Source of the DNA: Catajapyx aquilonaris
Lineage: Eukaryota
DNA length: 39,352 bases
Direction of reading: 5' to 3'
Assembly: GCA_000934665.2 (NCBI GenBank)
Contig: KZ538952.1
Span: forward strand, 1 to 39,352
Shown here: positions 1 to 30,007 of the stretch, one piece after another
How the letters are laid out: each line of letters starts with the position of its first letter
How positions within the stretch are numbered: position 1 is the stretch's first letter
Notes under the pieces: generated by a model
Database searches by the model: none
The model's input: the letters and a program-made list of their open reading frames with translations, nothing else
What the model was told of the DNA's origin: nothing
Translations under genes and position numbers: made by a program

Positions 1-262
1 AGGGCATTTCCATGGGAATATGAATTGATATATTGTTATTTGATGTTTATGTAAGTTAATTGTTGAGACCCGTGAAGTGAGAAGATTCGGGAATATGCGT
101 GTTGTGGGAGTTAGGTTCATTTTCGGAAGCTGAAACACGCGGCGTTAGATTCCTTGGAAAATGTAACCCCCGATATGCTAATTTAAGGCAGTGTAAGGGC
201 CTTCCCCTGGATTTCTATAAGGGACAAACAAACTGACAAACTTCCTTATTTATAGATATAGA
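1..262 (-). mobile_element. Probable 5' end of a non-autonomous Helitron-like (Lep1/HINE-type) element, running off the window start
   Basis: Minus strand begins TCTATATCTATAAATAAGGAAG followed by a (GTTT)-like tract GTTTGTCAGTTTGTTTGTCCC. A 5'-TC start with TATA-rich sequence and a microsatellite is typical of arthropod non-autonomous Helitrons. The 3' hairpin/CTRR end is not in the window. Confidence 0.4.
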
Positions 263-584
263 GATTCCTGTAATGAAAATGTCAAGTTTGAGAGTGACCG
301 ACGACGTGCTTCTTGAAAATGGAACCAGGGTGTTGATCAATGCGGTGCTGTGAATTTCTCAATTATATAAATTATTTTCAATTAACCCTGTAATGCCCAA
401 GTGGTCAAATTCTGTGAAAAAAATTTGAAAATTGGCAGTGGATCTGGAAAAAAATCCTAGATAAAGGGAAAAATATTTGCAATTTTTTTTGCAACCCTGG
501 CAAAAAAATTCGCATGTGCCACATATGGCACACGGGGCATCAACCGTAGTCCTGAAAAAATGTTTCGTTTAAGGCAAAAAACCT

Positions 585-847
585 CGATGGTATCTCCACC
601 TTATCGTGGTGGTGGGGTTTGCGTTTCTCCCGTGATCCCAAGAGCTATGCCGGCGGTAGCTTCGTCTACTAGTAGGGCCACCCAAGCCGGACAGGTCTTT
701 GGGATAGGAGACAGACTAAGAGGGATGCCAGTCTTTCCTCTCTTCTGTTTCCTCTTCGTTTCTCTCTCCATCTGTCCCACCTTTGCTTCTTCTTGCTTAC
801 AGCCAGATAGCCACAGTTGCTTTGGCTTCTTCCAAATAGACCAAACC
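585..847 (-). repeat. Dispersed repeat: 3' internal segment of a Gypsy-family element (inverted copy at 24330-24588, partial copy at ~3238-3333)
   Basis: Near-identical reverse complement at 24330-24588, with a few substitutions and a 4-nt indel. Its ~95-nt end also matches 3238-3333, directly downstream of the Gypsy integrase stop codon. Confidence 0.85.
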
Positions 848-935
848 GAATCAAACCAAAAATAAAACATGGNNNNNNNNNNNNNNNNNNNNNNNNNNNN
901 NNNNNNCGGTCAGATTTGCATCAAACTTGCACAGT

Positions 936-1354: not shown

Positions 1355-2355
1355 GTGACGCCAGGTTTGGGCACATGCACAGGTAAAGTTAAGGTGACCA
1401 ATGAGTGTCGTATTGTTGGTACAGCTTGCCCCGATTCGGGCTTCCGCTAACCTACTGGCTGGTTAGTGAGAGGGAAGCTCTTACTAGATTGTTGCCAGGT
1501 ACAGGGTTCAGTTCAAGACTGACAGGTTCAGATATCCGAGCGACGCAGTTGCCTGCTGGCCCTGATATTTTTTTTTTTCTTTTTTCTTTTCTTTTCCTTT
1601 TTTTTTTTTTTTTTTTTTTTTTTNTGGAAATACCACCATTTGGGTGGAACCGGTATACTAAGATAGTATTTAGTGTGTTCCAAGGGTAGGTAGGAGGGGA
1701 TGTGCAAAGTGCGTGTGCAATGTCGTTGATGTGCCGTTTTGTGAACTCCCCCGGGTGGCATATGTGAAAGGATCGCCACCCGAAACGAAGCCAGAGACGG
1801 TCTCACTCTGCACGAAAGAAGGTGGGAACCCCGGGTGGGGATTGAACCCGGGACCTTAACTTCCGTGGGCGCACGCGTTACCGCGGCGCCACTCCGTCTC
1901 CCCGCTGGCCCTGATATACTTTACCTAGTCAGTGTATGTACAGGCGACGCAGATGCCTGCTGGCCCTGATATGACGAATGCCTAGTCGGTGGTTGACTTG
2001 TCCCTAACTGAATGTTCTGAAAGGTAAATGAAACAACAATAGTCTTTGGTATGATCGGGTCCTGAACTCGGCTAAGCCGGTCAGCGCCTTTTCTGGAGGT
2101 ATTACCTCACCAGAGGCTGGCGACTGACTGAGCCCCGCAGGCTCAGGATACCTCCTTTTATAGTACTCAAGTTGTTGACAAGTATGCCAATAGAAATATA
2201 CAAACAATTGAACAACATCAACAAACTAATAGAACAAATGAACAATACATAAACAAGAGCAATCAACATGAACGAAACAATTGAATAACATTTAACAAGA
2301 ACAATCAAACATGAACGAAACAATTGAATAACACATAGAAATCCTGGGCATTACA
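1354..2355 (-). mobile_element. 3' LTR of the minus-strand Gypsy element (about 650 bp once the SINE is removed)
   Basis: On the minus strand it starts TGTAATGCCCAGG and ends CCTGGCGTCACA (TG...CA with imperfect inverted termini). It is preceded by a T-run and purine-rich PPT-like sequence (TTTTTTTAAAAAGGAGCAA). It has a TATAAAA box near 2156-2163 and ~40-nt tandem repeats at 2200-2335, and lies ~1 kb downstream of the integrase. Confidence 0.7.
1569..1903 (-). mobile_element. tRNA-derived SINE, full length, with poly(A) tail and 14-bp TSD
   Basis: Minus-strand head GGGGAGACGGAG-TGGCGCCGCGG (A box)...GGTTCAATCCC (B box). A-rich tail appears as the T-run at 1569-1623. Direct repeat GCTGGCCCTGATAT at 1555-1568 and 1904-1917. 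Confidence 0.9.
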
Positions 2356-2610
2356 TTGCTCCTTTTTAAAAAAATTGAAGAGTGGGGGTCTAAATGATAG
2401 ACCGCCACTCCTTCTTACAATAAGAACAATAATGGAACAATAATTACATACAACAACAACAACAACAACATAATAATAATAACAATCTTCCCACAATCCT
2501 GTAGGGAATTATTTACAAAATCTTAACAAAAAAAAACAATTTCTCACAAATTTTTACACAAATCCGGATTTGCACACACAAAACAATACACACACACACA
2601 CACACACAGC

Positions 2611-2935
2611 CTTGTCTTCACTAAGGCGTGGGGACATGAAAATTCAACTTTTCGAAGCGAGTGTAAACTAACCTAAACTAACCTAACCTAACCTAACCTA
2701 CCCTACCATAACTAACCTAGGCTGAGAAAAATTGACTTTTGTGAAACCCTACAACTGAAAATAGTGGGGACATGTCCCCACTAATTTAGGGAAGTCCCCA
2801 CTCTAATAGTACACAGTGTGTCACACACACGTCACACACACTGTGGGGACCGAGAAATGTCCCCACAATGCGGACTAGTCCCCACAGCTTCAGTAGAAAC
2901 ACAGACCTACGTCCCCAGACCTTATTGAAGACATG
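2611..2935. mobile_element. Non-autonomous DNA element embedded in a (CA)n microsatellite
   Basis: Imperfect 25-bp TIRs CTTGTCTTCACTAAGGCGTGGGGAC / GTCCCCAGACCTTATTGAAGACATG (4 mismatches). (CA)n flanks both sides. About 8 GTGGGGAC/GTCCCCAC octamers and an internal (CCTAA)n tract at ~2668-2720. Confidence 0.7.
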
Positions 2936-3346
2936 AACACACACCCACACACACACACAAAATTTAATGTCACTTCTGCATTCTCACCACGACGAAGGGC
3001 TCCCCAACTCGTCATCCAGGTGCAGGTCGACAATGTCTACGTCCTGAGACTCGTCCTCCTGGACGACTTCCAGTTGAGTGTCCTCCTCTACTACGTTGAT
3101 GTCTGAGTCCTGGAACTCCTCCTCCTGGACGACTCCGTCCTTGGCTCCCTCTGGAGTGCCGCTGGCCGGCTGGATGACGACCTGGATTACTCTCCTTGTC
3201 CTTATTCTTTTCTAAGGGAAAAGCTTCCCTTAGCTCTGTCTTCGTTTCTCTCTCCATCTGTCCCACCTTTGCTTCTTCTTACAGCCAGATAGCCATAGTT
3301 GCTTTGGCTTCTTCCGAATAAACCAAACCAAACCCTTAGCTCTGAA

Positions 3347-4310
3347 TTAAGAGTCAAATCCTGTTTGTAGGACATTGGTGTCGGTGTGAGTTGCAGATAG
3401 TATGGAGATGATCCTTCTGCAATTGAACATGGTGACACCATTGTACCGATGAGTAGGGATGACAGTGTTTGGAGTTGGAGAGTGTGGTTGAGATGGGTTT
3501 GGAGATGGGTTGGGAGATGGGTTGGTATCAGGAAAAGGAGATGATGGAAAGTACTTCCTGACTCGGTCTCGGTGTGTCAAGAACGTGTGAGGTTGACCTG
3601 GTTTTTGCAGAACAAAAATAACAGGACCCAGTCTCTTGACCACACGGTATGGACCATCCCAATACTTAAATAGTTTTCGGCTCAACCCTTTTGGACATTG
3701 AGGTTTGTGTAGGAGAACTAAATCTCCCACTTTTACATTCTTGGGACGGAACCCACGGTCATGGTATTTTTTAAAGTTTGATGAACACCTGGTGTAATCG
3801 TTCCTTGACTAAGTCATAAATGGACTGTAGTTTTGATGTCAAATTTTCTTTGAATGAGTGTATGGAAGTGCTGGACTGGTTGCGTTTGAAGATGTCATCG
3901 AAAGGAAATATAATATCCCTTCCGTGGACTAGATAGAAAGGTGTTTCTCCCGTAGACTCTTGAATGGCACCTCTATATGCCATTAGAACGACAGGAATAT
4001 CAGTATCCCAGTTCAACCGATTTTTATCAACATAGTGGCTTAACATATCCACTACAGTTTTATTGAAGCGTTCTACAAGACCGTTGGCTGAAGGGTGGTA
4101 AGGTGTGCATTGAAGTGCTTGTACGCCTAATAGGTTGTAGATTTCAGCCATCATTTTATACGTAAAATTTTTTCCTCTGTCGGTAAGAATTTCCGTAGGT
4201 ACACCATGTGTGGCGATTACCCGATAGACAAGTACTTGCGCAACTGTCTCTGCCTTTTGGTCTGGCAGTGGAAAAGCCTCCGGATATTTTGAGAAGTAGT
4301 CAGTAACACC
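3347..4310 (-). pseudogene. Gypsy/Ty3 integrase (rve DDE core + GPY/F C-terminal module), frameshifted, 5'-truncated
   Basis: Translation shows VTDYFSKYPEAFPL, ILTDRGKNF, TPYHPSANGLVERFNKT and TGETPFYLVHGR. After a frameshift near 3790 it reads KKYHDRGFRPKNVKVGDLVLL...KLFKYWDGPYRV. Confidence 0.95.
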
Positions 4311-4322: not shown

Positions 4323-4646
4323 CTCACATTTGTCCAGGACAACGCTGGGATCCACCGGGCGAGGTACACGTACACCAGTGCCTTCCTGGAGGAGCAGAGT
4401 AAGATTTCTCGGCTGCAGTAGCCTGCCTACTCCCCTGACCTCAACCCCATCGAAAATGTATGGGGTATGATGGTCAGGGAGTGGGACAACAGGAGTGAAC
4501 GACGGGACGATCTTCTCCGGGCTCACTGCACCCAGGTGTTGGAGTCAGTGGCCAACCGCCCGTGGATCCCGGGCAGCATCGTGTCAAGCATGCATCAAAG
4601 GCTGGCCGATGTCATTAAGAGCAGAGGAGGCCACACTAAATACTGA
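4323..4646 (+). pseudogene. Tc1-family (IS630-Tc1-mariner) transposase C-terminal fragment
   Basis: Reads LTFVQDNAGIHRAR...LQ*PAYSPDLNPIENVWGMM...SSMHQRLADVIKSRGGHTKY*. The QDNAxxH, WPxxSPDLNPIE (W->stop) and GGxTKY motifs are all present. Confidence 0.93.
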
Positions 4647-5502
4647 CTGAAAGTTCCTTGTTTTCGTTCTTTGATGTTCTGTGTTTTCGTTCGTTGATGT
4701 TCCGTGCTTTTTAAATTTTTCGTTGGTGTTCCCAGTCAAGTTCCCAGTGTTGTTTCCTTTTTCATTGATTACCAATATGGATGATTTGTTTCAAAATACC
4801 GTAACAAGCAGACCGCTGAGCCGCATCGAGCCGTGGTGCCTTGCGATGGTTACGCACGGATTTTTGGGCAGCGTGCCGTCCAAGTGCGTTTACCAGAAAC
4901 TGCAACATAGTCATCCCCGACAGCCGTCGATATCCATTCGAATGTACAGAACCGTACGCGAATATAGGGATTGACTTCGCCGAATCCATTCTTGTATGTT
5001 AACTGTTGTGTAAATGTGTGTGTAAACACCCCAGTGGAGAACGCTGCGTCCAAACGTATGTGTTCGTGAACTGCTCTAACCGTGTTTGAGGTGGCATGCT
5101 CAAACGGCCCCCCTTTTTTTCAGAGCGTATAAAATGTTTGGGGTGGATATGCTTTTAATCAGTTGTTTGGCGTGAGTGTGTGCCCTCACAGACTCTCTCC
5201 CGTGAACTGCATCCAAGTGGCGATATGGCTGCATTCCACGCTGCCGCATCGAATTGTGGATGGAAGACCGGAGAAACAGTACCTTTTCCATTTTTGGGAG
5301 ACCAATACAAGGCAGCAGTGGCTGGCTTGGCATGTATCTCCACCGTTATAGCGACGGTGGTGGACGAACTTCCGTTGGCCCTCCGACCCATCATTCAACC
5401 GGTAGGAACGACCCTGATAGCCACTACTGAAGGACGCATCCTGCAACCCCCTCGGACGGATCACGCTGCCCGTGGGTATATGGCTGGGTATGTGTTTCAA
5501 AA

Positions 5503-6117: not shown

Positions 6118-7560
6118 AAAAAACGCGATTTTACCCAAGATTAGGCTTTTGCACACGCGTTCTAGGGTTGCATAGGAAAGTTCTACTATTATTCCTTGAT
6201 TGTAGGGTCTCTAAAGAGCCCATTACGCTACACATTTTTTTTTTTAAAGTCCATACACTGTTCCCCAAAAATTGACGAAAATGTACCAAAAAACGGAATT
6301 TTTTCCATAAAAAGGACCCTGGAAAACCTACAGTTTCTATAAAAGATTGACTTTAAACACCATAGTGGCTTCAGACTAGACCCAGGTAACACCTAATGCC
6401 AGCAAAAACTTAGGTTCCATGTCTCTTGCCCCACGTTGTTGTGCATTGGACATGTGTCGTAGTCGTGTCGCACTACGTGGTTGCCTTATGGACTGTGTGT
6501 ACTATTGTCACACTAAGTCATTTGACCCAGTGTTCGCCTCGCATTGGGGAAATCGGTGGTTCACCGTGCAATCCTAACACATGAAAGAACCCCACGGCTG
6601 TATTATCCTGATATGCAACATTAGTGAGTCTTATCGTCTCACTTTCCTAACCCATGTGTGTCCTAAACCCCGTTCACACATACCCTTCCCTTCGTCAAGT
6701 GGAGTATGTGCATACCCAGCACTTCCCACACCTTTTAAGCTTTCCCCCTTTAATCTTATTCCCAATTGGATTTTGCCGAACAAGCGAATCCTCTTCTGGT
6801 CCTGCACTATTGTTGTTTTGACCTAAGTCGAGCTTTACGGCTCTAACCTATCCTATCCTGTCCGTCTCCTGGTGGTGCAATCTTACATAAACCGAAGAAA
6901 GAGGACATCGATGACCCCGTACAACTGGGAGGACAAATAGTCTCCCACCGGAACCGAGAGGATCCTGTACGAGGGCCATACTGATGGCTGTGCTCAACCC
7001 CGCTACAACCATCAACCCTACGATGGAGAAAATATGGAGGAAAGGTGTACCAATACCACTGGAACGACTGACTCCATTGGACCAACAGCCCGCTGTGACG
7101 ACGGGCCGTGCTGGTACCTGGAGGTACTAAACAAGAAAAAAAGGGGATGGAGGCATTAAGAAAAATGGCGTTAGATGGGAAAATGTTCGTACGTGAGTGT
7201 ACCGGTGTATCCAAGTGAAAAAAAAATCGGATTAGTTACCGGAGTTGATTTTTTTGGACCTCCCCTGAACTGTACTCTGAACTGTACTCTCCCGTGAAGT
7301 GGGACTTGCTAAGTGTGCAGTTCAACGCCCGCGTTGAGGTAGGGCCTCAAGACGTGGAAAAGTGAATGGACTCCCCATATGATGGAACCATTCGACAAGG
7401 GAGATGCTTTCCCATCGGGGAATAGGGTCCCAAATTACCCACCCTATAAAAATGTGTTGTGTGTGTGCTGTATAATCACTCGCTCGTTTGACTCCTGACT
7501 AGAAAGAGATCCAACTGCTTTTGGGGCAGCATCCAAGAACGTTCCGTTACAACCCGGAAT

Positions 7561-8022
7561 ATGGCCAGCGGCATCCTGAATACAACCACGATGCTGATGA
7601 TGACTGCAGGCACGCTGCCGATAGCCGTCTACGAGAAGGTGTGGATAGGACAAATCAGTCCCGGGGCGATCCTATCAACAGTGTCAAACAGCGTCATCCA
7701 GGCCATCCCAGAGTGGCTCCAACCAACTATACTGCCGTTTGGTGACGCCGTGTTGGTGTCGTCAGAGAACCACGCGATTCACCCCATTGGGAGGACTGAA
7801 TTGCCCATTCGTCTGGCTGGTGCCGTTTTCCAGACGCCTTTTGCAGTACTACAAGAAGCCGCGCTGCCAATTGTACTGGGGCTGGATTTCATGTGTAGCT
7901 GGGATCTACATATCGACCCCACTCGTCAATTGCTGACGGGGGTGATGCCTGTCGCTGACGGATCCACCGGCGAGTTACGACATTTTGCCACATCGTTCCG
8001 CATGTTCGACAAAACCCGGTAG
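7561..8022 (+). CDS. Retropepsin (retroviral aspartyl protease)-like ORF, 153 aa, catalytic Asp replaced (ISPGA), inside an LTR element
   Basis: Intact ATG...TAG frame with the LPIVLGLDF C-terminal retropepsin motif and PIGRTEL. Aligns without gaps (31/97 identities, counted by hand) to the DSG-bearing protease at 17421-17958. No RT follows. Confidence 0.75.
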   Translation: MASGILNTTTMLMMTAGTLPIAVYEKVWIGQISPGAILSTVSNSVIQAIPEWLQPTILPFGDAVLVSSENHAIHPIGRTELPIRLAGAVFQTPFAVLQEAALPIVLGLDFMCSWDLHIDPTRQLLTGVMPVADGSTGELRHFATSFRMFDKTR

Positions 8023-8457
8023 AACCCCTGCAGCCCGTTGCTTCTAGTCGCTGACGGACCACCATCTAGCCCCGGAGAGGACGTGTCACCGAGGCCATCC
8101 CCAGTCTACAGTCCTGCCGCCGATGAGATGCAGCCGCCTTTAGCATCGGAGAACAGCCCCGACATTGACCTCACGCTGCCCGAAGACACCTACTCATCGG
8201 CCTTTCTGGAAGAAGATGAACGGCCCTAAGTGAACCTGGACAACATGTTATCTTCAGGGGAAGTGATTGACGACCTGGTGAAAGTGACTTTGTGTTCGTA
8301 TAAACCACTGGCCCCATTTTCTTACGGTTTGACAAGATAAGAGAGAACTGCTTTTTGAGTTGAGCCAGTAGTTTCTTTGGATATTGTTTAAAATGCGAGC
8401 CCAAGTGAACCGGCCGTCGGAGAACTATACCGGGTCGGGTCCATTGGGATGGTTGGG

Positions 8458-8890
8458 TGTTAAATGTATATATTTATGCCTTCCTTATCCTTGTCGCTGT
8501 TAGCGATATCTGAGCATAGGGGTGCGTGACCTTGCAAAATTTGGTCAGATAACTGTGCAGGTCTTATCCCCTATCCATCTAACCTGACTTTTTCTGTTTG
8601 ACTCGGAAGAGCAAGTACATGCTGCGACGTCATATTACCTCCTGTTGTACATACCCACAATGCATCAAACTTTCCTATATAAGCCGTCTCCTTGGATCCA
8701 ATCGAGGCCTTTGGTGGTGCTCACCTGCCGCCACTGGCCATGCCTCTTTTCCCGTCTACATTTCCTCCTCCATCTGAACAACCCTTATTACCTCCCAATC
8801 AACCGCTCACCCTGTTTGTAAAATGGCAGTGACATTAAATGGAAATCCTGAGTTGAACCCTAGTCTACTTGCTTGGTACAATCCTCAACA
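8458..8890 (+). mobile_element. 3' LTR of protease-bearing element A
   Basis: G-rich PPT-like GGGATGGTTGGG lies immediately before TGTTAA. The element ends CCTCAACA. It has an internal CCTATATAAGCCG (TATA) and an ATTAAA polyA-like signal, and shares the CCTATATAAnCCG...GAGGCCTTT core with the LTR at 15734-16115. Confidence 0.7.
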
Positions 8891-8931
8891 GTAGTTGTGA
8901 CCTAACTACGAAGGTCTCAATAGCATTACCC

Positions 8932-9070: not shown

Positions 9071-9718
9071 CTATCGGAAGAAAAGATCCGGACGAAATGT
9101 AATGGATCCGCACTTCACAGCCATCCGGATATTTTTACGATATAGTACAGTAACAGACGTTTCATATGCCTGGGCATTGCTTATAGTTCAAGCACATTAA
9201 TTTGAGTACATTGAAAAGTATTTCCCAATCCTTGTAATGAAAGAGCCGACATTTCAGTCACCTTCTCTAGCTATGACCATATCTATAACATGCTACTGGA
9301 ACAGGACGACAGCGATAGCGACAGCTGTTTCTTAAGTAATATTGAGAAGGTTCTTTTGCCATCTCCAGTGACGACGACGGGGGCCGTCAGTAACATTCAT
9401 AAGCATTAATATTGCGCGACTGATTCATGCCACACGAGCCACATTTCAGTTATCAACCCAAGAGTACTCCTAAGGCCCAAAGCATTTATCTTCTTTTACT
9501 ACACGTTTCCTGAACGACAGTAACTTATGCAATATTGGTACGTGTACAGGGCTTTTGTTACCAGTCTAAGTTGGTTATTTGTCATATGTCCATAACAACA
9601 TATAAATTCTACTATTATTCTATAGTGCTATGGGTACCATAGTAGTCACTATGACTACTAAGTGTTTGTTGCGCTAGGATCATAAACAAACCAGTCAGTC
9701 CCAAATTAGAATTCTAGA

Positions 9719-10501
9719 ATGGGGAAGAAAAGTAAGTCGAGGCAGAGAGGGGGGCAGCGGAAAAGGCTAGCTCAACTGCCCGATGCTTCTCCGGTGCTTT
9801 CATCTCCACCATCACCTCCCAACCTATCACCAGGTCAACCTCTAGCCATAAATAAGTTGTGGAAGAAGAAGGTGGGAGTTCACCTATTCAACGACTGGAC
9901 CGACGAGGGTGAAGCACACCAGGGTCCTTACTCGCCACCGATGAGGAAGAAATTTAGGTCACTCTTTGGGCCATCCTCCAGTGATGAAGATGAAGAGAGG
10001 CCCAAGGATGTTCTATTCGAACTGTTTGGCGAATGGTCGGAGAGTGAAGAAGAACTAAATGGAGGTGAAGAAGAAGAGGATAGAGAAGAACAAAATAGAG
10101 CTGAAGAAGAAGAGGACAAAGAATAACAAAATAGAGCTGAAGAAGAAGAGGACGAAGAAGAACAAAATGACGAAGAAGAAAAGCAAGAAGAAGAAGACAC
10201 CAGTGCTCAACCAGATGATAATGTGAGTATGGATTCATCCTACTACGAACCATGGACACCACCGCCAATGACAGGAGCCCAGAAACGGAAGTTCTATGGT
10301 GACCTTGGATACGACAGCCAGGTAGCACAAATTGAGTACTACAAGCCTACACCTCACAACATCGAGCCTGTAGATGTCTCAAGCAACCGGTACGTCGACT
10401 TTGTACGAGGACAGTTACCTTGGCCGTGTAAGGATGACCATACGGGAGCAGAGAATGATGAGCGGACAGCAGAAGGGAGACCAGAGAAGATAGACCGTTA
10501 G
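9719..10501 (+). other. Low-complexity ORF region (basic N-terminus, acidic E/D-rich repeats), interrupted by stops; probably a TE accessory region
   Basis: MGKKSKSRQRGGQRKR...LFGEWSESEEELNGGEEEEDREEQNRAEEEEDKE*. Contains a duplicated ACAAAATAGAGCTGAAGAAGAAGAGGAC unit. No recognisable domain. Confidence 0.3.
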
Positions 10502-10664
10502 CAGAGAGATGCAGAAGAAGAGGTTCGAGAAAAGAAAAAAAGAAGCTGTTCACCCGTGTAGGGTCAACACTTTTTTTTAGAAGAAGGAAGTAATTGTAAT
10601 GCACATATTCATGTTGATAATGTAAAAGTCTTGCGTCATTGTTGATGTATTGATTATTCTAGGT

Positions 10665-10766
10665 GTTTACAGTAACGTGGGGCAACACAGGGGTCTTTCG
10701 TTGTTTGTTTAACTTTCCTTACTTATCGTTGCTCAGACCCCTGTGTTGCCCCACGTTACTGTAAAC
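10665..10766. repeat. Perfect 32-bp inverted repeat, 38-nt loop
   Basis: GTTTACAGTAACGTGGGGCAACACAGGGGTCT (10665-10696) and its exact reverse complement at 10735-10766. Confidence 0.95.
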
Positions 10767-10802
10767 GAACCGAGGTTTCAATAAAAGAGACCGTGCAGCG
10801 AC

Positions 10803-11326
10803 GCGTATTCCTTAACCCTACCTGGGCTCAATCGGGGGGTAGGGGGTACAACAGGGGGTAGGGGTACGATGTACTAACCCAACCTAACCATACCTAACCT
10901 TCACTCGTTGCGGATACAGCCCTATCTTCACGAATGCGAATATTAATATTCACTGCTTGATGTGATGTGGGCAGGGGGTAGGGGTACGATGTACTAACCC
11001 AACCTAACCATACCTAACCTTCACTCGTTGCGGATACAGGCCTATCTTCACGTAAGAAAAGACGACGAAAAAAATAGGGGGTAAAAAAAAAGAAGCCTAA
11101 CGGGGACTCGAACCTGCAGCCTTCTGATCTATAGGCCAGGGCGCTACCAATACACTACAGCAGCCATCGCTGGGATTGCTTCTTCCGATGGGGATTCTTA
11201 TGCTGCGCAGGCACGATGGCCCGTGTCCTAGAGCGCGTCCAACACCCGCATGTGACGTCACGGCGGGAGAGCGGTGATGCGCATTCGGACGCGCCAGTTG
11301 AGCCCAGGTAGGGTTAAGGAATACGC
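10803..11326. mobile_element. MITE with 29-bp perfect TIRs and 9-bp TSD (Mutator/MULE-like)
   Basis: TIR GCGTATTCCTTAACCCTACCTGGGCTCAA at 10803-10831 and 11298-11326. TSD TGCAGCGAC at 10794-10802 and 11327-11335. Internal ~81-bp direct duplication (10852-10932 / 10972-11052). Confidence 0.9.
11101..11165 (-). pseudogene. tRNA-derived sequence (pseudo-tRNA / SINE head) inside the MITE
   Basis: GGCTGCTG-TAGTGTATTGGTAG (A box)...GGTTCGAGTCCCCG (B box), followed within ~10 nt by a T-run. The acceptor stem does not pair, so it is not a functional tRNA. Confidence 0.65.
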
Positions 11327-11929
11327 TGCAGCGACCAGGCAGTCAGTGGCCCGCAGTCGGACTGGAAGGTCCCCTGAAAAGGGAGCTCTCCCCTTCGATT
11401 AGTCGGCTCACTGATCCACTTGAAACGTTGATAAGACGGGGTCAGAGGTCATCTGGTGATGACCCGACTTCCGCTTACTTGCAAACTATCGCGACGAGGG
11501 GGAGTGCAGGTAAGTTTGGTGGTTAGACCAACATTACTTGCTTCATGTGTTCAATTGAGACGCCCAAAACACTTTCCATAAGCAATCACATAATTTATTT
11601 ACTTAGTAAGCAATCATCTTAACTTAATGAACTCAACAAAACACCAATAAGTTACGTGAGAAAATGTCCACCACAGTCTAGCCCCACAACCAACAACAGC
11701 CCACTCCGGCAGCCCTAACCCCTTGAGAAGTCAGGCTGGATCTCACCCCTTCCGTTTACGGTTTTGGTAGAGACTTGGATTTAGACGACTCCTGTCGTCC
11801 CCAGCCTCTTCCAGTTTTGGGTGGTCCTTCCTCCAGTCCTGTATCGTAGATTCAGGGTTGCATTCTTCCATGGTTTTCTCGCTCGTCCACGGCTTCCGAT
11901 GGCTTCTGACATCTCGGGCTTGGTCGTCG

Positions 11930-12260
11930 GGTCTTGTTCTTCTTGTTCTTCTTCTTCTTCTTCTTCTTCTTCTCCTTCTTCTTCTTCATCTTACAGAGAC
12001 TTGCTGACTGGTTCGCTGGTGTGCTCTCAAAAACTCAACTCTCCATCTCTCTTGGACTTCTCTCTTCTGCTCTCTGGTCTCTTCTCCTTTGGCTGGTTTC
12101 CGGCTCAACGCGTAGCTTTTCGACGGCCTCCCTCCAACTCTAACTCCAACTCCATCTCTCTCTCCAACTCTCCATCTCCCACCTTCTCTTCGGACTACTT
12201 CTCCCTTCTCTCTACTCCAACTCCTTCTGTCTCCTTCTGGTGCTCTCTCTCTCTTACCCT
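11930..12260. repeat. Pyrimidine-rich low-complexity tract including (TTC)n
   Basis: TTCTTCTTG/TTC repeats at 11933-11990 and CT-rich runs to ~12260. The ORFs called here are composition artefacts. Confidence 0.8.
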
Positions 12261-12635
12261 CGCTATTTGGTCGCCGCTTATATGTTGAATTTTCGAAGGT
12301 TTACACCTCCTCACCACAATAGTATCGGTTTTAATTATTCTAATGTCCTTCCATTCTTCTGAGCAATGCTCCCGTGGTTGGGACATTTGAGTTGCAATCC
12401 CGTCGAGAGGGCCTTTTGTGAACAATGCCTTATTTCAAAGAAAGGCCTTAAATTCTGTATCCTTTTCTTTGACTTTCTGCACTTGCCACCTTACACACTT
12501 GCCACTCGGTAGTGAAAAATAACATTTCCCGTGTTTTTATTTCATACAGAGTACGGCATAAATAGTAAACTGACCAGGAGTCATAGTTGGGTAGGCGCCA
12601 CCCAAGTATACTCCCGGGAGGAGGAAAGGATACCT

Positions 12636-16139: not shown

Positions 16140-17420
16140 ATGATTGTTTTCAACGCCTCTAGGTTTTATTGGATCTGATCATGCGGTGTATCCTTCGGAG
16201 TTTTATTCTCCATCCTACCCTGTTTGATCCTTTGGGATGCTTGGTTTTCAAGCGCGTCCACGGTCATATTATCACCTCTCCGATTTTCCCTGCCCCGTGG
16301 GACTTTTCTTCCTTTTGGATCACTTTGGTGCTTTTGGCACAACGCTACCCCCTGATCCTCTGTCACGTGACTCTGTGTATGAATTCGGCACTGGTCACGG
16401 TTGACATTCTGCAAGAAACTGTATGCACTTTTGGCATTATGTTTATTGCGGTTGTGAATTCCCCTCTTTCGGGCTATTTGTCGCATGACGCGCCATTTAA
16501 GCAGCTATTGATGAAGGGAGGCCTTCTCAAGCGAGTTTATGGTCCTGGTTTTTTTTTTTTCCTTTTTATATCCTACCTTACCTACTTTACCCCCCTTTGT
16601 GGACAGTTATATCTACAAACATCGCTACAGACACATGAGAGAGTGGAGTTACGGGCCACCCGGTTCCGTTGGTGTGTGCGGAATACGTCACCCAGGGGCC
16701 GGGGTGGTGAGGCAGTGTGGAGGCCCATGTGACTAAATTCTACTACGGCATGTGCCCCTTTTGCCTCTATATCTTTGTGGAAGTTTCCATCGCGGGAGGT
16801 CGGACAAGCGATTTTCTATTATCCGACTAATTGAAGTTAGAAGACCCCACCCGTGAGAATAAAGGCAACCTTCCACGCCGTGATTTATTACACCACCTAC
16901 ATTGGCTGCGTGTGTGTGTGCATATGCGTGTGTGGCATATTGGTTGTCGTGATATTTTGATAACCACCATATTCCTGGTTGTATGGACCAGGTGCCGTGG
17001 ATGTTATTCATTTAAATTGGAGATCCATCTTATCAGGAGCCATTTCCTTGCCCCCTTGTAAGGTGGGAGGGGGTGGAGGATATTGGACTACCCCGTAGTA
17101 GTGAGCTGTGGATATCCCATTGGTCAAGTGCTCCACACTACTGGACTGACCTCCCAGTGTGTGACGCAACATTGAAGGACATTCCAACCACCATGCATTG
17201 CACTCTTCCCGAATATAAGCAAGACTCGCCAGCCATGTGTTATTCATTTGCGAATCTTCTTGTGCCACTCTAACTTACGCACTTTCTTTCGAGCAGCAGC
17301 AGTACGAGCAGCGGTGTGAGCAGCTTCCTTACGAGAAACTTCCTACGTCTACGAGCTGAATTACGTGCAACTCGTAAGGATGGCCTCCTTCCGAATCGAA
17401 GAACCAGATACTTCGATGAT

Positions 17421-17958
17421 TTTACTGCTGCCACCATTCCCGTACTCGTTCATGGAATTCCACATACCGCTCTACTGGACAGCGGAGCCGTATCTTCCAT
17501 GGTCTCCATAGCTATGTGTGACTCCATTCCTCGTTGTTCAAGACCTCCGTTGGAACCGGCCCCTCCGACGAAGCTGCGCATGGCCGACGTACACCTTGTT
17601 CGACCTTGTGGGAGGACAACACTCACCCTCACCATGGGGAGCATAACATTCCAGAAGACGTTCCTCGTGGTGCGTAATGGGAGTGCTTCCCGTGATTTTG
17701 GCCGCAGACTTCATGGCCGCCCTGGGGTGTCACCTTGACTTCCAATGCCTGTTTCTTTCCGGAAACATCTACTCCGAGGTGGACGTCCCGACGCTGCACA
17801 CTTTCATCATGCCTTTTCAACTGTTCGAGGAAATGGAGGTCCCGCCATCGGACCGGGACTACAGACGTCGTCGTCGCTCCTACAAGAAGAGGAAGCGGAG
17901 GGACACTTTCCTGGACCGCACGTACATTTGGAGCTCCTTCTTTGGTTTCGTAAATTGA
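17421..17958 (+). pseudogene. Retropepsin aspartyl protease (DSG active site), 1-nt frameshift near 17679
   Basis: TIPVLVHGIPHTALLDSGAVSSMVS...VRPCGRTTL...FLVVRN / GVLPVILAADFM. Ends in a basic tail RRRRRSYKKRKRR. No RT domain follows. Confidence 0.88.
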
Positions 17959-18203
17959 CCGCTGTCATCTGAGTGACATTTGAAGTACGTACATCATCAT
18001 CGTCATCCCTCATTACCAGTTATTGGTGTCCTACTTTTGTTGACGAAGATTTCTTTTTGGTTTGTGGCCGTCTGAGAACTTCACCCGGGTCTCTTTTTTT
18101 TCTTTGTGGATTTTGTTTCCGTGTTTGACACATGTTTTCTCCCCTTGCAGTTTTGATGGAAAGCATGGAAGTTGCTGGAAAAAGATGCGCGTGCCTTACC
18201 AAT

Positions 18204-19083
18204 ATTCGCCGACTACGAAGAAATGGATGGACAGTGTTTTACACCGACGAGACCTGGTGTGGCGCTAATCACACCAGGAAGTTTGGGTGGCAGGAGTTTG
18301 CACGAAGTTCAGACAAGTGCACATGCAACACTTACCGTGATGTGCAGGAAGTGCATGGGTGGAGGGGTGGAATGAAGGCGCAAGCAGGAAAAAGAATGAT
18401 CATACTTCACATTGAAGGAGAAGAAGGATTTTTGGACGGTGGGGAGTTAGTTTTTACCGGGAAGAAGGGGAGCCAGGATTATCATGATGAAATGAATTGA
18501 AAACATTGCAAGGAATGGTTTCAGAGAGTTCTAGAAAGTTTGCCAGAAAAATCAGCTGTGGTGATAGACCAGGCACCATACCACACGATGATGAACCGAA
18601 GAATGTAAAAATCCCAAGTCATACTGGAGAAAGGATGACATCATCAACTGGTTAAAAAGGAACAATGTTGCTCCCCCACAAGATGAACATTATAAAGACA
18701 TGCGAAAAGCGCGACGTGTGCAGTGAGCAACTCCTCATTATCGGGCGAAAGAGTACGTGCTCGATAAAATGGTGAAGGAATCCGGAAAAGAAGTGAAACT
18801 GTTATGGCTCCTGTGGCTCATTGTGAGCCAAATCCAATCGAGCTCATATGGGCTTACGTAAAAAAATTCCGTGGCAGCCACCAATAAAACCTTCAAGATC
18901 AAAGACGTTTTTGAGCTCTGCAGAGACACACTGCGGAATGTGCCGACGAGCGTGTGGAAAAAAAGCTGTGGACTATTATTTTGAGAAAGACGGCCTGATT
19001 GAAAGCATTGTGGAAGCCATGATTATCAATACTGAGGGCGACTCGGACAGTGATTTACGGGAAGACTTAAGAGACGACTTTTA
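18204..19083 (+). pseudogene. IS630-Tc1-mariner transposase of the Sailor (DD82E-like / m44-like) type, degraded
   Basis: Motifs FYTDETW, AGKRMIILH, DYHDEMN, VVIDQAPYHT, W-RKDDIINWL and HCEPNPIELIWAYVK. The second D (18567) and the E (18840) are 273 nt (~90 codons) apart. Several stops and frameshifts. Confidence 0.82.
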
Positions 19084-19213: not shown

Positions 19214-19781
19214 ATGGCCGATTTAGTGAGTACCGATGATCGAGCTGAGCAGCTCATAGAGTTAATTAAAGGATTCCGCCACATATACGACGCCAAGGCG
19301 AAGGACCACAGAAACGCTTTGGTGGTTTTCAATTCGTGGAAGGCCATCGCCATCACCATGAAGCTATCTGGTGAGTGTTCAGTCCATATTCTGACCATAG
19401 CCTGGCAATGTACACATGTGGAATAGTTGTTGTGCTGGCTCTTGGGGACAATAGCAGTCAAATCACGTATTGCTTGGGTTTAAGATGTTGTACGTACCTA
19501 GTATGCACATGTAAGATAATTAATTTCATATGAGAGCTAACGTGAACAGTTAAGTGCAGCATGGTTCAGTCATAAGCAAAACATAGCTGCAATGTGTTCA
19601 CTGTCACATCAGGATTATTTACCCCATTTTGTTTACTTCCACAGTGGAGGAAGTCAAGCGACTACGGCAAAGTCTAAGAGACCGTTTCACGCGGTACCGG
19701 TGGACTGTGGCCAAGAGCAGGCGGAGTGGGGCTGCTGCAAAATCCATCAGGGCACCAGCACATGCAGCAGCCAGTGACTAG
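19214..19781 (+). pseudogene. MADF (Myb/SANT-like) DNA-binding protein fragment, spliced; typical Harbinger accessory gene
   Basis: Exon 1 MADLVSTDDRAEQLIELIKGFRHIYDAKAKDHRNALVVFNSWKAIAITMKLS. Phase-1 intron GTGAGT...TTCCACAG (19371-19644). Exon 2 VEEVKRL(W>R)QSLRDRFTRYR...SGAAA. Confidence 0.85.
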
Positions 19782-19985
19782 CAAATTTGATTTGGCCATC
19801 CTCCCACCGACCTCGGCTGCAGCTCAACAACACTCCTTACGCGTGTACCATCAGGTTCAGCAGTGGAAAGGTGTAGACTTGGAGCCTACAAACTGTGGAT
19901 GAAGAGTCAAGAACGGAAGATTGAGGCCAATTCCCACACTTCTTGAACCAGGTCCGGAGAACTTTGTGTACAGCTTCAGGGACAT
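19768..19985 (+). pseudogene. Academ-like transposon protein, C-terminal fragment preceding the Cys-rich finger
   Basis: QPVTSKFDLAILPPTSAAAQQHSLRVYHQVQQWKGVDLEPTNCG*RVKNGRLRPIPTLLEPGPE matches the LPPTxxAxxxHxxRxxxQxxxW...WGW...PxP signature. The family assignment rests on recalled motifs. Confidence 0.7.
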
Positions 19986-20052
19986 GTCCTCAACATATCC
20001 CCAAAAGCGCGCTTTGTTATTAATTTGTTCCATGTAAAAACCTAATTGCACT

Positions 20053-21889: not shown

Positions 21890-22880
21890 AACATCAGGTG
21901 GGCAAGAGAAAGAAACTTCTCCATTGACACCATGATAAAATGTGGATTCGTATCCCGACTCGTAGATTTCTTCGAAAATGACGATGAGACAGAGCTGCAA
22001 TTTGAGGCAGCGTTCGCGCTGACCGAAATAGCATCTGGGGCGCACGATCAGACTACGGAGCTCCTGGTGGCAGTGGAAATCATGCTACGGGGCCTGTGAT
22101 GCTGGTGAATGCCATCCAGGCGGCTGCATTTCTCTAAACCAAGAGAACCCACGAGTTGCCGTCGATGTTGATGCTGGCACTTCCCCGCAGTTAATCACTC
22201 TCCTGTCCGGAAGTGACAAGTAAGTATAATGTGTGATGTTTTTGTCCAAGTGCGTAGCTTACATTTGTAATACTGTGTACAGGCCTGAGCTACAATTGAC
22301 AGCAGCTGGGGCATTGGCCACCATAGTGCCAGGGACAGCTCATCATATCAAGTCAGTGGTGGACGAAGGAGCCGTCCCCCACCTGGCTACCGTCTTGAGC
22401 TAGGGTACTGAAGAAATGGGGAAGCATGCTGTCAGGGTCCTAAGATGCATTGCAGGAAGTGGAGCCTATCAGAGGGACATTGTCATCAGCAGTGCTGGGG
22501 TCATCACGCCTCTGCTGGAACAAATCAATAAGCCCACCACTACTGAAAGTCCAGCATAATCTTGAACATCACGATTAACTATTTCTTATGTCCATTGTTA
22601 CCGCCTGAATTCTTGCGCCACATCACCCTGGACTATGGCCACTTTGTGCAGCAATCCGAACCCGTGGCGTCCCTTGAAAACCGTCTCCCAGCTGATTCCC
22701 GGACTTTGCCAACTACTTGACCATTGTACTGACAAGAACGTACTGGGTATGTACCGCTTGTCTTATCCGCTTCATTTAAGTACTTCCTAATGGCATTCTT
22801 TTCTCTTCAGAAAATGCGTGTTTGGCTCTCTCATACATCACTTACGATGCGACCAATGCGAATATCCAGAAGGTGGTCAA
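21890..22880 (+). pseudogene. Importin-alpha (karyopherin alpha)-like armadillo-repeat pseudogene, intron-containing
   Basis: ERNFSIDTMIKCGFVSRLVDFF...LQFEAAFALTEIASGAHDQT; PELQLTAAGALATIVPGTAHHIKSVVDEGAVPHL; FLRHIT/WTMATLCSNPNP; KNVL|ENACLALSYIT...NIQKVV. Introns at 22220-22282 and 22747-22810 (GT-AG), plus a decayed one at ~22545-22602. In-frame stops and frameshifts. Confidence 0.85.
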
Positions 22881-23625
22881 GCCAATCAGCCGATTCGAAC
22901 TACCCACTGACGTCACTGTCGCACCTTCTGGGTTGAGACTAGGCCAAGGAGGCACTGAACCCTGCTCATGTACCAACTTGATAAATTGCAAGTCTGAAAT
23001 TACATACATATGCTACTAACAAAGGTATCATTCAAGACATTCTTGAAGTAATTTTAAAATGCTCCTACTATATAGGGCTACAAATTGTAACTTCTCGGTT
23101 CTTTACTTTATTACTACCTGTTAATACGAGCAGCCATGATGACAATTGGCACAATTTTGGCATAATTTTTTAACAGTGAAAATGACATCCTCTCGGATAT
23201 ACAAGGACTTTGATATGTACAGAGTGTAGTGCAATGCACTGCAGGCCTGCGTTGCAACAGACATGTATGACATGCGGAGGGTCGTGCCGGCAAGTGAATG
23301 GAACATCCCCGATTAACTACCCCCAATTAAGAGCCCATGAATAATTTGCTTGAACTTTATACGAAAATTACATGAGTAATATTACGCAATAAATATTTGT
23401 GTAAAAATCATATTATTATTACAGGTAGGTGTTTCTATCCATCCTCTCTGGATCGTCTCTCTGATTAATTATGAATAGCCAAGGAGTTTGAGTCATTATT
23501 GAGGCCGAACCCGGACAAAAATAATGTCAAGCTGAAAATTTGCAGAGGCTCTGTTTGGCATGCTGAACAACATATCAAAAATCCCCGACAATTCCCTGTC
23601 GGCGTCATGTTTTTTTTTTTCTTGT

Positions 23626-24318
23626 TCAAGAAGTACGTAAGTGACAAGGGTTTCTTCACAATCAGACGTACCGATGATGTGTGGGGCGGGGTATGGTCTT
23701 ATTGAGCAACGCTTGATGCGACATTTGACGTCACGAGGTGTCCTTACTCGTGGTCGTGGCATCACAGACAATACCTTGGCACACTTTGTTCTCAGTTTTC
23801 CTGGAGTCCTTTCACTTTGCAATGCACTGGAACAGTTGACAGGTGTGAGCAGAAACTCACCACAGCAGCACGTAGAGATGAGACTCCCGCCGAAAATCAG
23901 ACAGCCATGATGTGGAAATATTCCGCAAATGGTTTGAGGATCATTCACCTTGAGAAAAAGTTTGAATGTCTTCGATCCATTTCTTCAGGTGTTGTTGGTA
24001 ATGCACGTACTAACTGTGATCAAGCCAGGGATTTAGTCCCCGTTGCTATGAAGGAGATGGTAGGATCAAATTTTGGCAATGTCAACTGCAGTAGGCCGGA
24101 CCTTCCAAGATCTTGCGAAGGTCTTCAATGATCAAAAGTCGACACATTCGCAAGTGCTGGAGAGACTTTTGTAAAAATAATGTACCGCCGTGAAGCGTCT
24201 GCTGGCAGGATCAATGATGACCTGCGCGTCCATAAGTACGAGCGTCACATTGTAACACAACCAGTGGCTGCTGAGTTCGATATGGTAATTTTGCCTCCCA
24301 CGAGCTCAGCTTCGGAAG
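23626..24318 (+). pseudogene. Academ-like transposon protein, internally deleted fragment
   Basis: KGFFTIRRTDDVWGGVWS / IEQRLMRHLTSRGVLTRGRGITD / QQHVEMR-SRRKSD...WFEDHSP / LRSISSGVVG...NC, then a jump to ...KYERHIVTQPVAAEFDMVILPPTS. The last part is paralogous to the 19768 fragment. Confidence 0.7.
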
Positions 24319-25984: not shown

Positions 25985-26610
25985 AGGCTGGAAGCCCGAC
26001 TATTACTGGCTCAGTCCTCAGAGGTGAAGTGGAAAGGACAGGGAAAGGACGAAAGCAGAACACTCATCAAGCCGAGGACCTGTCCAGACCCTTCCGGGGA
26101 GGGCTGCCCAGAGTGCTAGCTGGAGTCTTAGCCCCTTGCTACTTTTTGTATATTGTGGGTATAAGAGGTGCCGAGGCGCCGGGGTGTCAACTCCAGTGAA
26201 AGCTTTGGGGCTTAACCTCTGTGAGGGAGGGAGCCTGACTTGAGATCTAGGTCTTGCTCTTGCAAAACAGCCCTACTCGATACGGCATCAGATAAGTCCG
26301 GGCCTCCTGGTGGGCACCGTGGACTCCACCCTTGGGGCACGGTGAACGCCTGTGTGGGGTCACAGGGCCTAGTGCGCGTGGATTGGTTGCCGGGGCGCTT
26401 GGGTCCCGGTCACCGGCCTCCCACTTGGTCCGGGTGGGGAGTGAGTTCGTGGGGGTCCCGAACACTATTGGGACAGCCCTCACGGACCGACTCAAGCGAC
26501 TGAGGATAGGCAGCCGCGCCCCTTCAGGGCAGAGGGTGGGCTTTAGTTCCATTATATGTCCGTACCTTTTTGATTTGAGTTTATTTGCTTTAAGCCGGGA
26601 ATCCCGTTAA
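25985..26610 (+). mobile_element. GC-rich structured segment upstream of R1 ORF1; probably the 3' end/UTR of a preceding tandem copy (or a long 5' UTR)
   Basis: Starts with GWKPDYY-LAQ-like codons resembling the R1 ORF2 PxYYLTQxLTGHG motif. Has several stems (CACCGTG/CACGGTG, CGCTTGGGTC/GACTCAAGCG, GTTCGTGGGG/CCTCACGGAC) and ends GGGAATCCCGTTAA. Confidence 0.4.
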
Positions 26611-26782
26611 TTGAGTGAGTGGTGTGTGGCGTGAGGCGCACCAAGTGCGCAGATTGTTTGAGGAGTGGAGGAGAAGTCGTGGACGTGTAGTGCGTCCACG
26701 CAAGAGAACTACTGAAACTCGTGGCAGCTGCGCGGGCTGGAGCGTGCAGCGTTGCGGTGCACACAACTCTGTCCGCAGAACC

Positions 26783-28506
26783 ATGGATAAGGATGCTGGG
26801 GGAATCTTCAGGCCACGGAACAGCCTCACCAGGTCGCCTCCAACACCTGGGCAAGGGACACCACCAGCCGTGACCCAGCAGCAAGGAACACAGCGGCAGC
26901 CGCAGGAGAAGCGGAATCCAACAATTGAGGACTTCTTCAGGACCAAGCCGGCGGATGACGGATCCTCCTCTGGACGCATCCTGTCTCTAGAGAGGAAACG
27001 TAAGCACCGCGGCGGCCAGGCCTCTCCCGGCACTACTAAGGAGTCGGAGCCTAAGAGGGGGAAGGACGCAGGGAGCCCCCCTGCCACTCCCCGAGACGCG
27101 GACGCCGCAGCCGCCATCACGCTGCGCTGGAATCCTCTGGCTCGGAGGTGGGCATGGATGAGGAGGAGGGCGGCACTCGGGACGATCTCGTGGATCCGCC
27201 TGGTCTGGTGACGGAGGCGACGGAGGCTTCAATTCAGATCTCGAGGCTGGATCTGAGCTACGCCGGGGGACTTTCGGACTGGGGCACGAGGGAGGCAGCC
27301 ATACGCAGTCGGTTTGACATGTCGGACGAGGGATGGCTGAAGGAGATGGCGGTCCTCGTTGAGCTCGTGAATATGGCTTTATCCAGAGAGGTGAATGGTA
27401 AGGTGTCGGTTACCAGGCAGGACCAGGTTGCTGCCAAAAATGCTCTTCTTAGAATGAAGGATGCCTTTTCTGTGGTGGTTGCTAGGAATCAGTCCCTCAA
27501 GGGAGAGTTGTCTACCATGACGATGGAGAGGGAGATATCGCAGGCCGTCGAATCTGGGAGTAAAGTCCTGACGAGGGAAGTGTCGGAGCTTCGGAGGGAT
27601 CTTGTCACACGAGACCGTGAGGCGGCGTTGGAGGTTCGTCGGCAACAGGCGGCGGGTCACTCGGGCTCCTCTTCATCCTCGACAGCGGTCCCTACATTTG
27701 CCCAGATCGCCAGCAGCAGCTCCGGACGGCAGGCCTTTCCTCCAAGGGCTCCGGTGAGTCCGCAATTCCCGTTAATTGTGGAGGTCGAGGAATTTCGGGC
27801 CCCGAATCCGTATGTGTTTAAATCCATTCTGAGGGACTCGGTTCCGGCCGCGGTAGTCTCCGACGGGTTTAAGGCCATATCGCAGACCAGAGGGGGGTAC
27901 AGGGTCAACTGCAGGACGGCGGCCCAGAAGGATGCTGTGTTACAGGCCTTAGCAGACAAAGGGTTTCAGGTTCGGTCCTCCAACCAGTGGAAGCCCACCA
28001 TTCGTCTTGTCGGCGTGGCTAATGGATTTACAGGTGATACCCTCCTCACGGAACTGGCCGATAGTAACGCTGATGATCTCCGAAGCTTTCGCCCTCTGCA
28101 GCAGCACGTCCGGGTTCTTGGAGCCAGGGAATGGCAGAACGCCCCCCGTCAGAACTGGTTTCTGGAGGTAACACCAGAGCTGCACTGTCATCTGAGGGAG
28201 CTTGGGAGTCTCCGAGCGGCCATGGAGATGTGTGGCCTGGAGGATATGGTAAGGACGCACAGATGCTTCCGATGCTCCGCCTATGGCCACATGGCCAAGT
28301 ACTGCAAAGCCCAGGACCCATGCTGCGGCAGGTGCTCTGGGAAACATGAGGCCAGGGACTGTCGGGAGTCTGTCATTTGCTGCCCTAACTGTAAGATCGA
28401 ACGAGCGGGTGATACTAACCATGGCGCATGGGCCGAGACGTGCCCGGCGTAGCAGCGCAGGAAGGTCCAACTCGCGCGACGCACCGATTATGGTATTCGG
28501 GCTTAA
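26783..28506 (+). pseudogene. R1-clade non-LTR retrotransposon ORF1 (gag-like, three CCHC zinc knuckles)
   Basis: MDKDAGGIFRPRNSLTRSPP N-terminus, frameshift at ~27120-27150, then CFRCSAYGHMAKYC, CGRCSGKHEARDC and CPNC...H...CP. Premature TAG at 28450 precedes the ...RRTDYG end, which overlaps the ORF2 ATG. Confidence 0.9.
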
Positions 28507-30007
28507 GGTAACCCAGTTTAACGCCAGGAGGGGAGTTAACTCCACCTGCCTGGCTATTGAGTGGGGTGCGTCGCGCGGGTTGGACATCCTGTGTATTCAG
28601 GAACCGCACATCCCGAGCGTCAGGCACAAGTTAAATCGGTGGACGCATGTGACCAAGGGGGGCTCGGTAGCATTGATCATTTACATTGGACGCACCACGG
28701 CGGTTAGGTTGACGTCAGTATCCAGTTCCATCATCGGGGCGTTTACGGTCCTCTGCGGGGATCTGGAATTCACATTGGCGAATGTATATCTGCCGTTTTG
28801 GGACGCCCTAGAGGGGGTGGGGGGGGGGGTCTTTCTCAGCTCGCAGGAGTCATGCGCGCCTCTACCTCGATGACTCTGCTGGTTGGAGACTTCAATTCCC
28901 GCCTATCGGCATGGGGGGATTTTCGGGACACCAATAGAGGGAGAGATCTGCTGCAATGGGCGACCGCAGCCGGGCTGCAGTTGGTCAATACGGTTCCTTC
29001 TCCACCGACGTATGACAACAACGGGCGGATTAGCTGGATCGACCTGACGATGCACCGGCGGCTGGAGGTTCGTAATTGGGAGGTCACCAAGGAGGACTTC
29101 GGCAGTGATCACAAGTTTATCCAGTTCGAGGTGATGGGAGGTTGTCCAACCCCGGTCGCCCTGCGCTGGGCATGGTCCCGGGCCCATTGGGAGGAGTTTG
29201 AGTCCCAAGTGGGTGAGTGGGCTGCAGCGCAGGACGATCCGGGGACGTTGGGTCAGGAAGACCTCGATCTACAAGCTTCAGCCTTTCAGGAAGCCTGCAT
29301 GGCCGCCACCGTGGATTGCGTCCCCAGACGGAGCTGCCAGGTAAAGGCCTACTCTTTCTGGTCACCGGAGCTGGCACGATTACGTCGGGAGATGCGTTTC
29401 TGTCGACGTCGGCTCCAGGCCTCCCGGGGGGGCGACCCCGGCATGGAGTCGCTTGAGAGGACCCGCTGGCGGGAGTCGAGGCGCAGTTACAATAAGGCCC
29501 TCCATGACCACAAGGCGGAGAGCTGGAGGAAATATTGCCAGGCTGCTTCAGAGGAGAACCCGTTCACGGTGCCGTATCGGATCCTCCGAGAGACGTTCGG
29601 CAGGACTCTTGAGTCTTCCCGGGGCGACGAGAGTGCGGTCGGGGCGGATCTCGAGGCTCTGGATCGGGAACTCGTCAACCGGTACTTTCCTAAGGACGAC
29701 GGCTCGTGGGACCCCGACGAGTACGAATATGATGGTCCGGAACAGTGGGAGCCACCGATTGCTGCGGTGGAGCTCCAAACAGCTATACGCGAGATGAGCG
29801 GGAATAAGGCGCAAGGGCCCGACGGGCTTCCCTTGATTTGTTTGGGGCACGTTCACAAGGCGGCAGGCCAGTACTGGGCGTCGCTTATTGGTTCGCTTTT
29901 TCGGATCCACCATTTTCCACCGGCCTGGAAGGAGAGCAGGGTCGCTTGGGTTCCAAAGGACAGCGAGGGGGCGGTTAGGCCCATTTGTCTGGCGCCCGCA
30001 CTCGGAA
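28490..30007 (+). pseudogene. R1-clade ORF2: APE endonuclease and start of reverse transcriptase, 3'-truncated
   Basis: LKVTQFN, DILCIQEP, NVYLP (frameshift in the G-run at 28813-28829), LLVGDFNS, PTY, SWIDLTM, SDHKFIQF, FWSPELARLRR, KAQGPDGLP, FPPAWKESRV and VRPICLAPALG. Breaks off before the QG/YADD motifs. Confidence 0.93.

Follow-up and report, generated by a model that had tools for sequence, protein, structure and literature searches.

Co-oriented transposon and gene remnants on a 39-kb scaffold of Catajapyx aquilonaris, possibly part of a one-strand piRNA source locus

The stretch of DNA analysed here (the window; 39,352 nucleotides, contig KZ538952.1) is the entire 39-kb scaffold C1938 of Catajapyx aquilonaris, from an assembly of 285.6 Mb in 20,583 pieces. 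It is made up of transposon and gene remnants inserted into one another, no intact gene was found in it, and it is one of many scaffolds of this genome with clustered, co-oriented transposases of unrelated superfamilies. Its mosaic is unique, the junctions at 8920 and 9552 being spanned by no other locus of the genome (44 matches). An original prediction, made from the DNA sequence, had proposed a flamenco-like unistrand cluster of PIWI-interacting RNAs (piRNAs) with a strand switch at ~4310.

Orientation was assessed at two levels. A strand-blind six-frame Pfam scan treated both strands identically (66 frames per strand, E<=0.05), and a deeper annotation combined a library of natural open reading frames (ORFs) built from own-genome family matches with own-genome DNA copies and targeted searches (Table 1). 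Between 4311 and 30060, 15 elements could be oriented, 13 on the plus strand and two on the minus strand (p=0.0074; p=0.021 for a tally variant of 13 against 3). Two of the 13, the hAT-linked piece at 8945 and long terminal repeat (LTR) element X, are oriented indirectly via copies on other contigs. Plus elements make up 92% of the oriented bases in this stretch, 63% of which is covered by oriented bases. Over the whole window 15 of 19 oriented elements are plus (p=0.019), and leaving the cut point free gives p~0.019 (4000 shuffles). By class, the plus strand holds all seven DNA transposons, five of seven LTR elements and long interspersed nuclear elements (LINEs), two of four short interspersed nuclear elements (SINEs) and the importin piece. 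The plus bias to the right of ~4310 is real, and weaker than first claimed: where 14 fragments in 4.3–30 kb had been counted as all plus, at a chance of ~1e-4, the bias stands but is broken by two firm minus elements, a solo LTR and a SINE.

In the blind scan, the plus strand returned DDE_3 at ~4323 and ~18480, Integrase_H2C2 at ~20080, Arm at 21.9–22.4 kb and an endonuclease at ~28840, together with two junk matches. The minus strand returned rve and an integrase C-terminus at 3.5–4.3 kb and three junk matches (Med19, DUF6168, ACC_epsilon). Right of 4310 its only Pfam matches were two junk ones, and the 42 minus frames from 14401 onward gave no family. Counted as loci, this amounts to five plus against none minus right of 4310 (p=0.06), with one minus integrase to the left. 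The natural-ORF library added hAT and MADF on the plus strand and nothing new on the minus.

A strand switch at ~4310 is unsupported because the left side is split, with two plus and two minus elements. That side had been described as minus throughout, but both (AAACC)n SINE copies there (582 and 3239) read on the plus strand, and only the tRNA-headed SINE and the Gypsy 3′ part read on the minus; a Helitron end also assigned to this side could not be verified. At 4310 the Gypsy part simply abuts the Tc1 piece, the truncated integrase and the truncated transposase being separated by a 16-bp spacer without an N gap.

Table 1. Oriented and unoriented features of the window. TSD, target-site duplication; TIR, terminal inverted repeat; PPT, polypurine tract; PBS, primer-binding site; MITE, miniature inverted-repeat transposable element; aa, amino acid; RT, reverse transcriptase.
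Position	Strand	Feature	Evidence and remarks
582..856	+	SINE-like retroposon, ~275 bp, (AAACC)n 3′ tail	own-genome copies
1569..1903	-	tRNA-headed SINE, poly(A), 14-bp TSD	6 matching loci, 5 with common 5′ start; B-box on minus
2030..4307	-	young Gypsy 3′ part	integrase 3441-4307, 3′ region to 3192
3239..3332	+	5′-truncated (AAACC)n SINE copy, 12-bp TSD	nested in Gypsy 3′ region
4324..4797	+	Tc1/mariner transposase, C-terminal piece	DDE_3 E=2e-10; 88% aa to own-genome copies
6420..8920	+	LTR element A: internal part with protease A, PPT, LTR (8526-8920)	93% over 2.5 kb to C487
8945..9552	+ (indirect)	hAT-linked piece	86% to C5139; no BED match
9555..12620	+ (indirect)	LTR element X, 3′ part, acidic ORF	98% to C8463, downstream of its plus-strand rve
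10803..11326	no strand, not counted	TIR element, 9-bp TSD	tRNA-like head ~11095-11165 on minus
11421..12495	-	solo LTR, 1,075 bp, TG...CA, 4-bp TSD	70 genome matches; exception to bias
12963..13769	+	hAT transposase, N-terminal exons	tblastn E=1e-14 to own-genome hAT ORF
14991..15328	no strand	MITE	spans N gap; TIRs and 8-bp TSD match across gap
15784..17958	+	LTR/PBS-like start (presumed) and protease B	Asp_protease_2 E=0.0014
18195..18884	+	long-spacer Tc1-group transposase	DDE_3 E=0.0075; tblastn E=1e-12
19247..19777	+	MADF-domain remnant with introns	Pfam E=0.004; tblastn E=3e-4
19780..20013	+	transposase piece 1 (presumed Academ-type)	E=6e-15 to 348-aa ORF of L265
20056..20430	+	old Gypsy integrase piece	Integrase_H2C2 E=8e-9; 33% aa to own-genome copies
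21923..22860	+	importin-alpha pseudogene piece with introns	Arm E=6e-6; PDB importin-alpha E=1e-19
23553..24314	+	transposase piece 2 (presumed Academ-type)	E=4e-12 to 364-aa ORF of L265
24322..24591	-	full young (AAACC)n SINE copy, 11-bp TSD	inserted in transposase piece 2; <=99.6% to other copies; exception to bias
26615..30057	+	R1-like LINE (clade presumed): ORF1 with zinc knuckles, endonuclease, RT truncated early	Exo_endo_phos_2 E=5e-18; zf-CCHC E=0.02
30900..38610	no strand, not counted	degenerate duplicated units, 66-85% alike	self-matches
39255..39308	-, not counted	kinesin-light-chain-type TPR motif, 18 residues, weak	PDB E=0.01; no Pfam match

Orientation elsewhere in the genome was counted among listed matches, namely the best 150 of 929 RVT_1 candidates, 150 of 193 for rve and 150 of 153 for DDE_Tnp_4, together with DDE_3 (102), hAT dimer (134), piggyBac (107) and MADF (76). 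Same-family matches less than 3 kb apart were merged, and C1938, C1632 (two overlapping opposite matches), two DDE_3 matches on integrases and contigs on which the co-occurring matches came from a single element were left out. Among contigs with at least two transposase superfamilies, 21 of 25 carry them on a single strand where 11.0 would be expected (P=3e-5), a count to which duplications among the 25 contigs may contribute. Inclusion of same-family pairs gives 23 of 30 (P=2e-4). Nearest transposase pairs agree in 23 of 25 cases, and still in five of six beyond 15 kb. In contrast, RT or rve matches agree with transposases in 10 of 20 cases and RT with RT in four of seven (Fisher p=0.002 against the transposase pairs), a contrast in which class and age are confounded because the RT matches are best-scoring and mostly long-ORF. 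Transposases also share contigs 2.4-fold more often, at 31 of 66,542 pairs versus 22 of 112,625 retroelement–transposase pairs (p=0.002). Set against this background, the locus is not exceptional.

The MADF matches suggest what might be sorted. Those less than 4 kb from a Harbinger transposase lie on the opposite strand in five of six cases, whereas distant MADF matches lie on the same strand in all eight pairs (six contigs), a pattern that hints at sorting of coding sense rather than element polarity. At four loci of the Harbinger group (DDE_Tnp_4; L174, L175, L179 and L193) a YqaJ exonuclease ORF lies alongside. Five further contigs were picked by number; on one of them, C1900, all five transposable-element (TE) pieces are minus, three of them decayed retroelement pieces, and the others gave 0, 0, 1 and 0 matches. 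C1900 also carries a 655-aa single-ORF Lig_chan gene (ionotropic-receptor-like; L033:5126-7090) on the same strand as its five TE pieces.

Both minus exceptions right of 4310 are young (<=93% full-length identity for the solo LTR, 99.6% for the SINE) and nested in plus elements. The solo LTR belongs to a family with copies up to 93% identical over the full length, of which 20 flanks were read. A short two-LTR element of the same family (C5564:1-3632, L276–L278) has the order LTR, PBS, ~2 kb, PPT, LTR and is probably non-autonomous; placement of its PBS, a motif which we take to be one, and of its PPT makes the solo LTR sense window-minus. AATAAA within the solo LTR occurs on the minus strand only. 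The purine-rich tract at 11.8–12.3 kb, rightly suspected of being an exception, lies inside this LTR.

The (AAACC)n SINE has 1036 candidates in the genome, 40 of which were scored at 93–100% identity. Across 30 loci it shows the same C-run start, an (AAACC)n end and, in most cases, TSDs that vary in length. Because the truncated copy at 3239 fixes the 3′ end, the family reads plus at 582 and 3239 but minus at 24322. What had been called a Gypsy 3′ segment, at 582 and again at 24322, is identified by comparison of the 30 loci as this SINE, with a sense opposite to that assigned. No tRNA head was found in this young, high-copy family, whose 5′ part presumably resembles the 5′ ends of RTE-clade LINEs with a ribozyme like that of hepatitis delta virus; Rfam gave no such match. 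As for its host at 3239, the Gypsy integrase (rve E=2e-8) is 93–94% identical in DNA to long-ORF copies, and the PPT and LTR read by eye at ~2030-2375 are a candidate part of the same element.

Most of the plus assignments of the original prediction were recovered, namely Tc1, hAT, MADF, the Gypsy integrase, importin-alpha, the R1-like LINE, both Academ-type pieces and proteases A and B. Several of its labels fared less well. Pfam confirmed no BED domain at 8932 or 14740, and the transposase at 18195 is a putative Sailor. The piece at 8945 takes its sense from the copy on C5139, which runs in the same sense as a hAT dimer match 2–3 kb off. The LTR of element A also lies ahead of the internal part in C12181 and C17171; protease A matches Asp_protease at E=0.06 and aligns to protease B, with no homologue at E<=0.001. 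Element X contains two nested insertions and a purine tract ahead of a TG start at ~10594. Its acidic ORF (9710-10549) carries 36-bp repeats and lies downstream of the integrase in the C8463 copy; no relative was identified, a search yielding two weak, probably compositional matches. An Atlas search with an Academ-type piece gave nothing. Since the importin-alpha pseudogene has kept introns, it was copied as DNA; its first piece had no homologue at E<=0.001. An isolated CCHC knuckle-like stretch (19112-19198, plus, E=0.017) stands outside the tally.

N gaps occupy 873-906 and 15143-15261, and the join across the latter is sound because the TIRs and the 8-bp TSD of the MITE agree on either side. 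Palindromic or TIR-bounded non-coding elements lie at 5796-6409, 10665-10766, 14165-15733, 20780-21393 and 30528-30672, and their long hairpins yield spurious scores for microRNA families. Rfam matched the window only with such hairpin-type families, below the gathering score and at these elements, with no tRNA or ribozyme; ARAGORN likewise found no tRNA in the window. Folding of both tRNA-like heads is weak and not significant (z=1.36 and -1.80 on minus). The units at the right end gave no family match in Pfam scans. FN3-like motifs were seen there by eye only, and neither the FN3 identity nor the plus strand that had been given to them was confirmed. A PPR identity was also considered and rejected, as the scores were sums of 3-bit stretches. 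One duplicated unit had no copy elsewhere when searched genome-wide, and duplicated sequence occurs also at 25173-25241. The TPR fragment at 39.2 kb, named earlier as a further possible exception, may indeed lie on the minus strand.

We tentatively assign the window to a piRNA source locus that is transcribed from one strand and rich in DNA-transposon remnants, one of many such loci, and give this somewhat less than an even chance. Transcription of the minus strand would give a long precursor, whose cleavage would yield piRNAs that bind PIWI and are antisense to transposase mRNAs. Plus-strand coding pieces would be kept by selection, while recent insertions would still land in either orientation. 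A wider proposal is rather doubtful: that many scaffolds of the genome carry one-strand piRNA loci in which selection acts on the coding sense of cut-and-paste elements (Tc1, hAT, Harbinger, piggyBac, Academ-type) and not on that of Gypsy, which would make them a dispersed DNA-transposon equivalent of flamenco, recognisable by sequence alone.

Several observations weigh against the source-locus reading. AATAAA occurs 13 times on the minus strand versus six on the plus (~7 expected on each), with no depletion on the proposed precursor strand. Across the genome RT and integrase domains do not track the transposases (10 of 20), even though antisense trapping would be expected of retroelements as well. 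Four of the 19 oriented window elements are minus, and four of the 25 contigs used for co-orientation are mixed. Locus flanks of 1.5 kb, in which matches are short and noisy, gave no support for co-orientation (DNA–DNA 2 of 5, retroelement–DNA 6 of 12). Moreover, sequence does not settle which strand is transcribed, because the Lig_chan ORF of C1900 shares the strand of its TE pieces.

The same layout could arise in a long intron or long non-coding RNA on the minus strand that lost its sense insertions to selection against their splice and poly(A) signals and has no piRNA role. According to PMC1391917, mammalian repeats show an antisense bias inside transcribed regions, and the weak TPR motif near 39.3 kb might represent an exon. 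However, the class order given there, with LTR elements most and DNA transposons least biased, is the reverse of that in this genome. The minus strand from 4.3 to 39.3 kb is also without a Pfam match apart from junk, and its AATAAA motifs are not depleted; we consider this explanation unlikely. An insertion polarity of DNA transposons set by replication or chromatin, producing same-strand domains without RNA function, would fit a bias that is limited to cut-and-paste superfamilies and persists beyond 15 kb. It appears improbable: in four superfamilies the coding strand would have to be tied to fork direction in the same way, distant MADF tracks transposase sense although MADF is opposite within elements, and some long-ORF same-family pairs are discordant (C3747, C2533).

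Local chance, together with the choice of window and cut in ordinary heterochromatic debris, could be argued from the corrected p of ~0.02 and from the five-to-nil blind count by itself. The genome-wide lists, which are independent of the window, and the uniform strand of C1900, a contig picked by number, make this improbable. Cargo captured by Helitron-type elements shows an orientation bias, and a mosaic taken up one way by such a large carrier would explain the introns kept in importin-alpha, MADF and hAT and the sharp abutments at 8920/8945 and 9552/9555. Yet the junctions recur at no other locus, each piece matches a different contig and no carrier ends were verified, which leaves capture highly improbable.

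Comparison of the proposed source locus with known systems separates layout from composition. Like flamenco, the window holds dense TE fragments mainly on one strand and no intact gene was found in it, so that the layout proposed originally fits a one-strand piRNA source locus; the composition and the switch do not carry over. In Drosophila the bias of flam-like loci is driven exclusively by Gypsy, and flam-syntenic loci span 227–1,085 kb (PMC10643416). Here DNA transposons (7 of 7) are more uniform than LTR elements and LINEs (5 of 7), and many scaffolds share the pattern, of which this one is 39 kb long. Because the bias is not Gypsy-driven, we do not class the window as flamenco-like. ROAST (PMC1391917) shares long co-oriented stretches of unrelated repeats, with the class order reversed. 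Snail piRNA clusters are enriched for DNA transposons including hAT and Kolobok (PMC6128900) and share this richness with the window; enrichment there concerns young elements and not orientation, whereas the pieces here are mostly decayed.

In the literature searched, whose coverage was incomplete and whose supplements could bear on the point, we found no report of genome-wide co-orientation of transposase remnants. The key point is this class split: across the genome transposase remnants share a strand but RT/integrase matches do not, the reverse of what holds for flamenco and for mammalian introns. Should such loci produce piRNAs, the trap model would extend to shaping DNA transposons, and a non-model animal would offer coordinates at which to test it; otherwise transposase polarity needs a different explanation. 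A preprint (10.64898/2026.01.28.702291) describes most clusters as unistrand in the other model organisms it covers. The closest match in layout is provided by the uni-strand clusters of Trichoplusia ni, with many loci per genome and an incomplete antisense bias: 286 loci in which 57% of insertions and 80% of TE bases are antisense, and one 77-kb cluster with values of 68% and 80% (PMC5844692). Those clusters are defined by piRNA reads and their bias, in the sections drawn on, is not split by TE class, whereas the window is known from its sequence alone.

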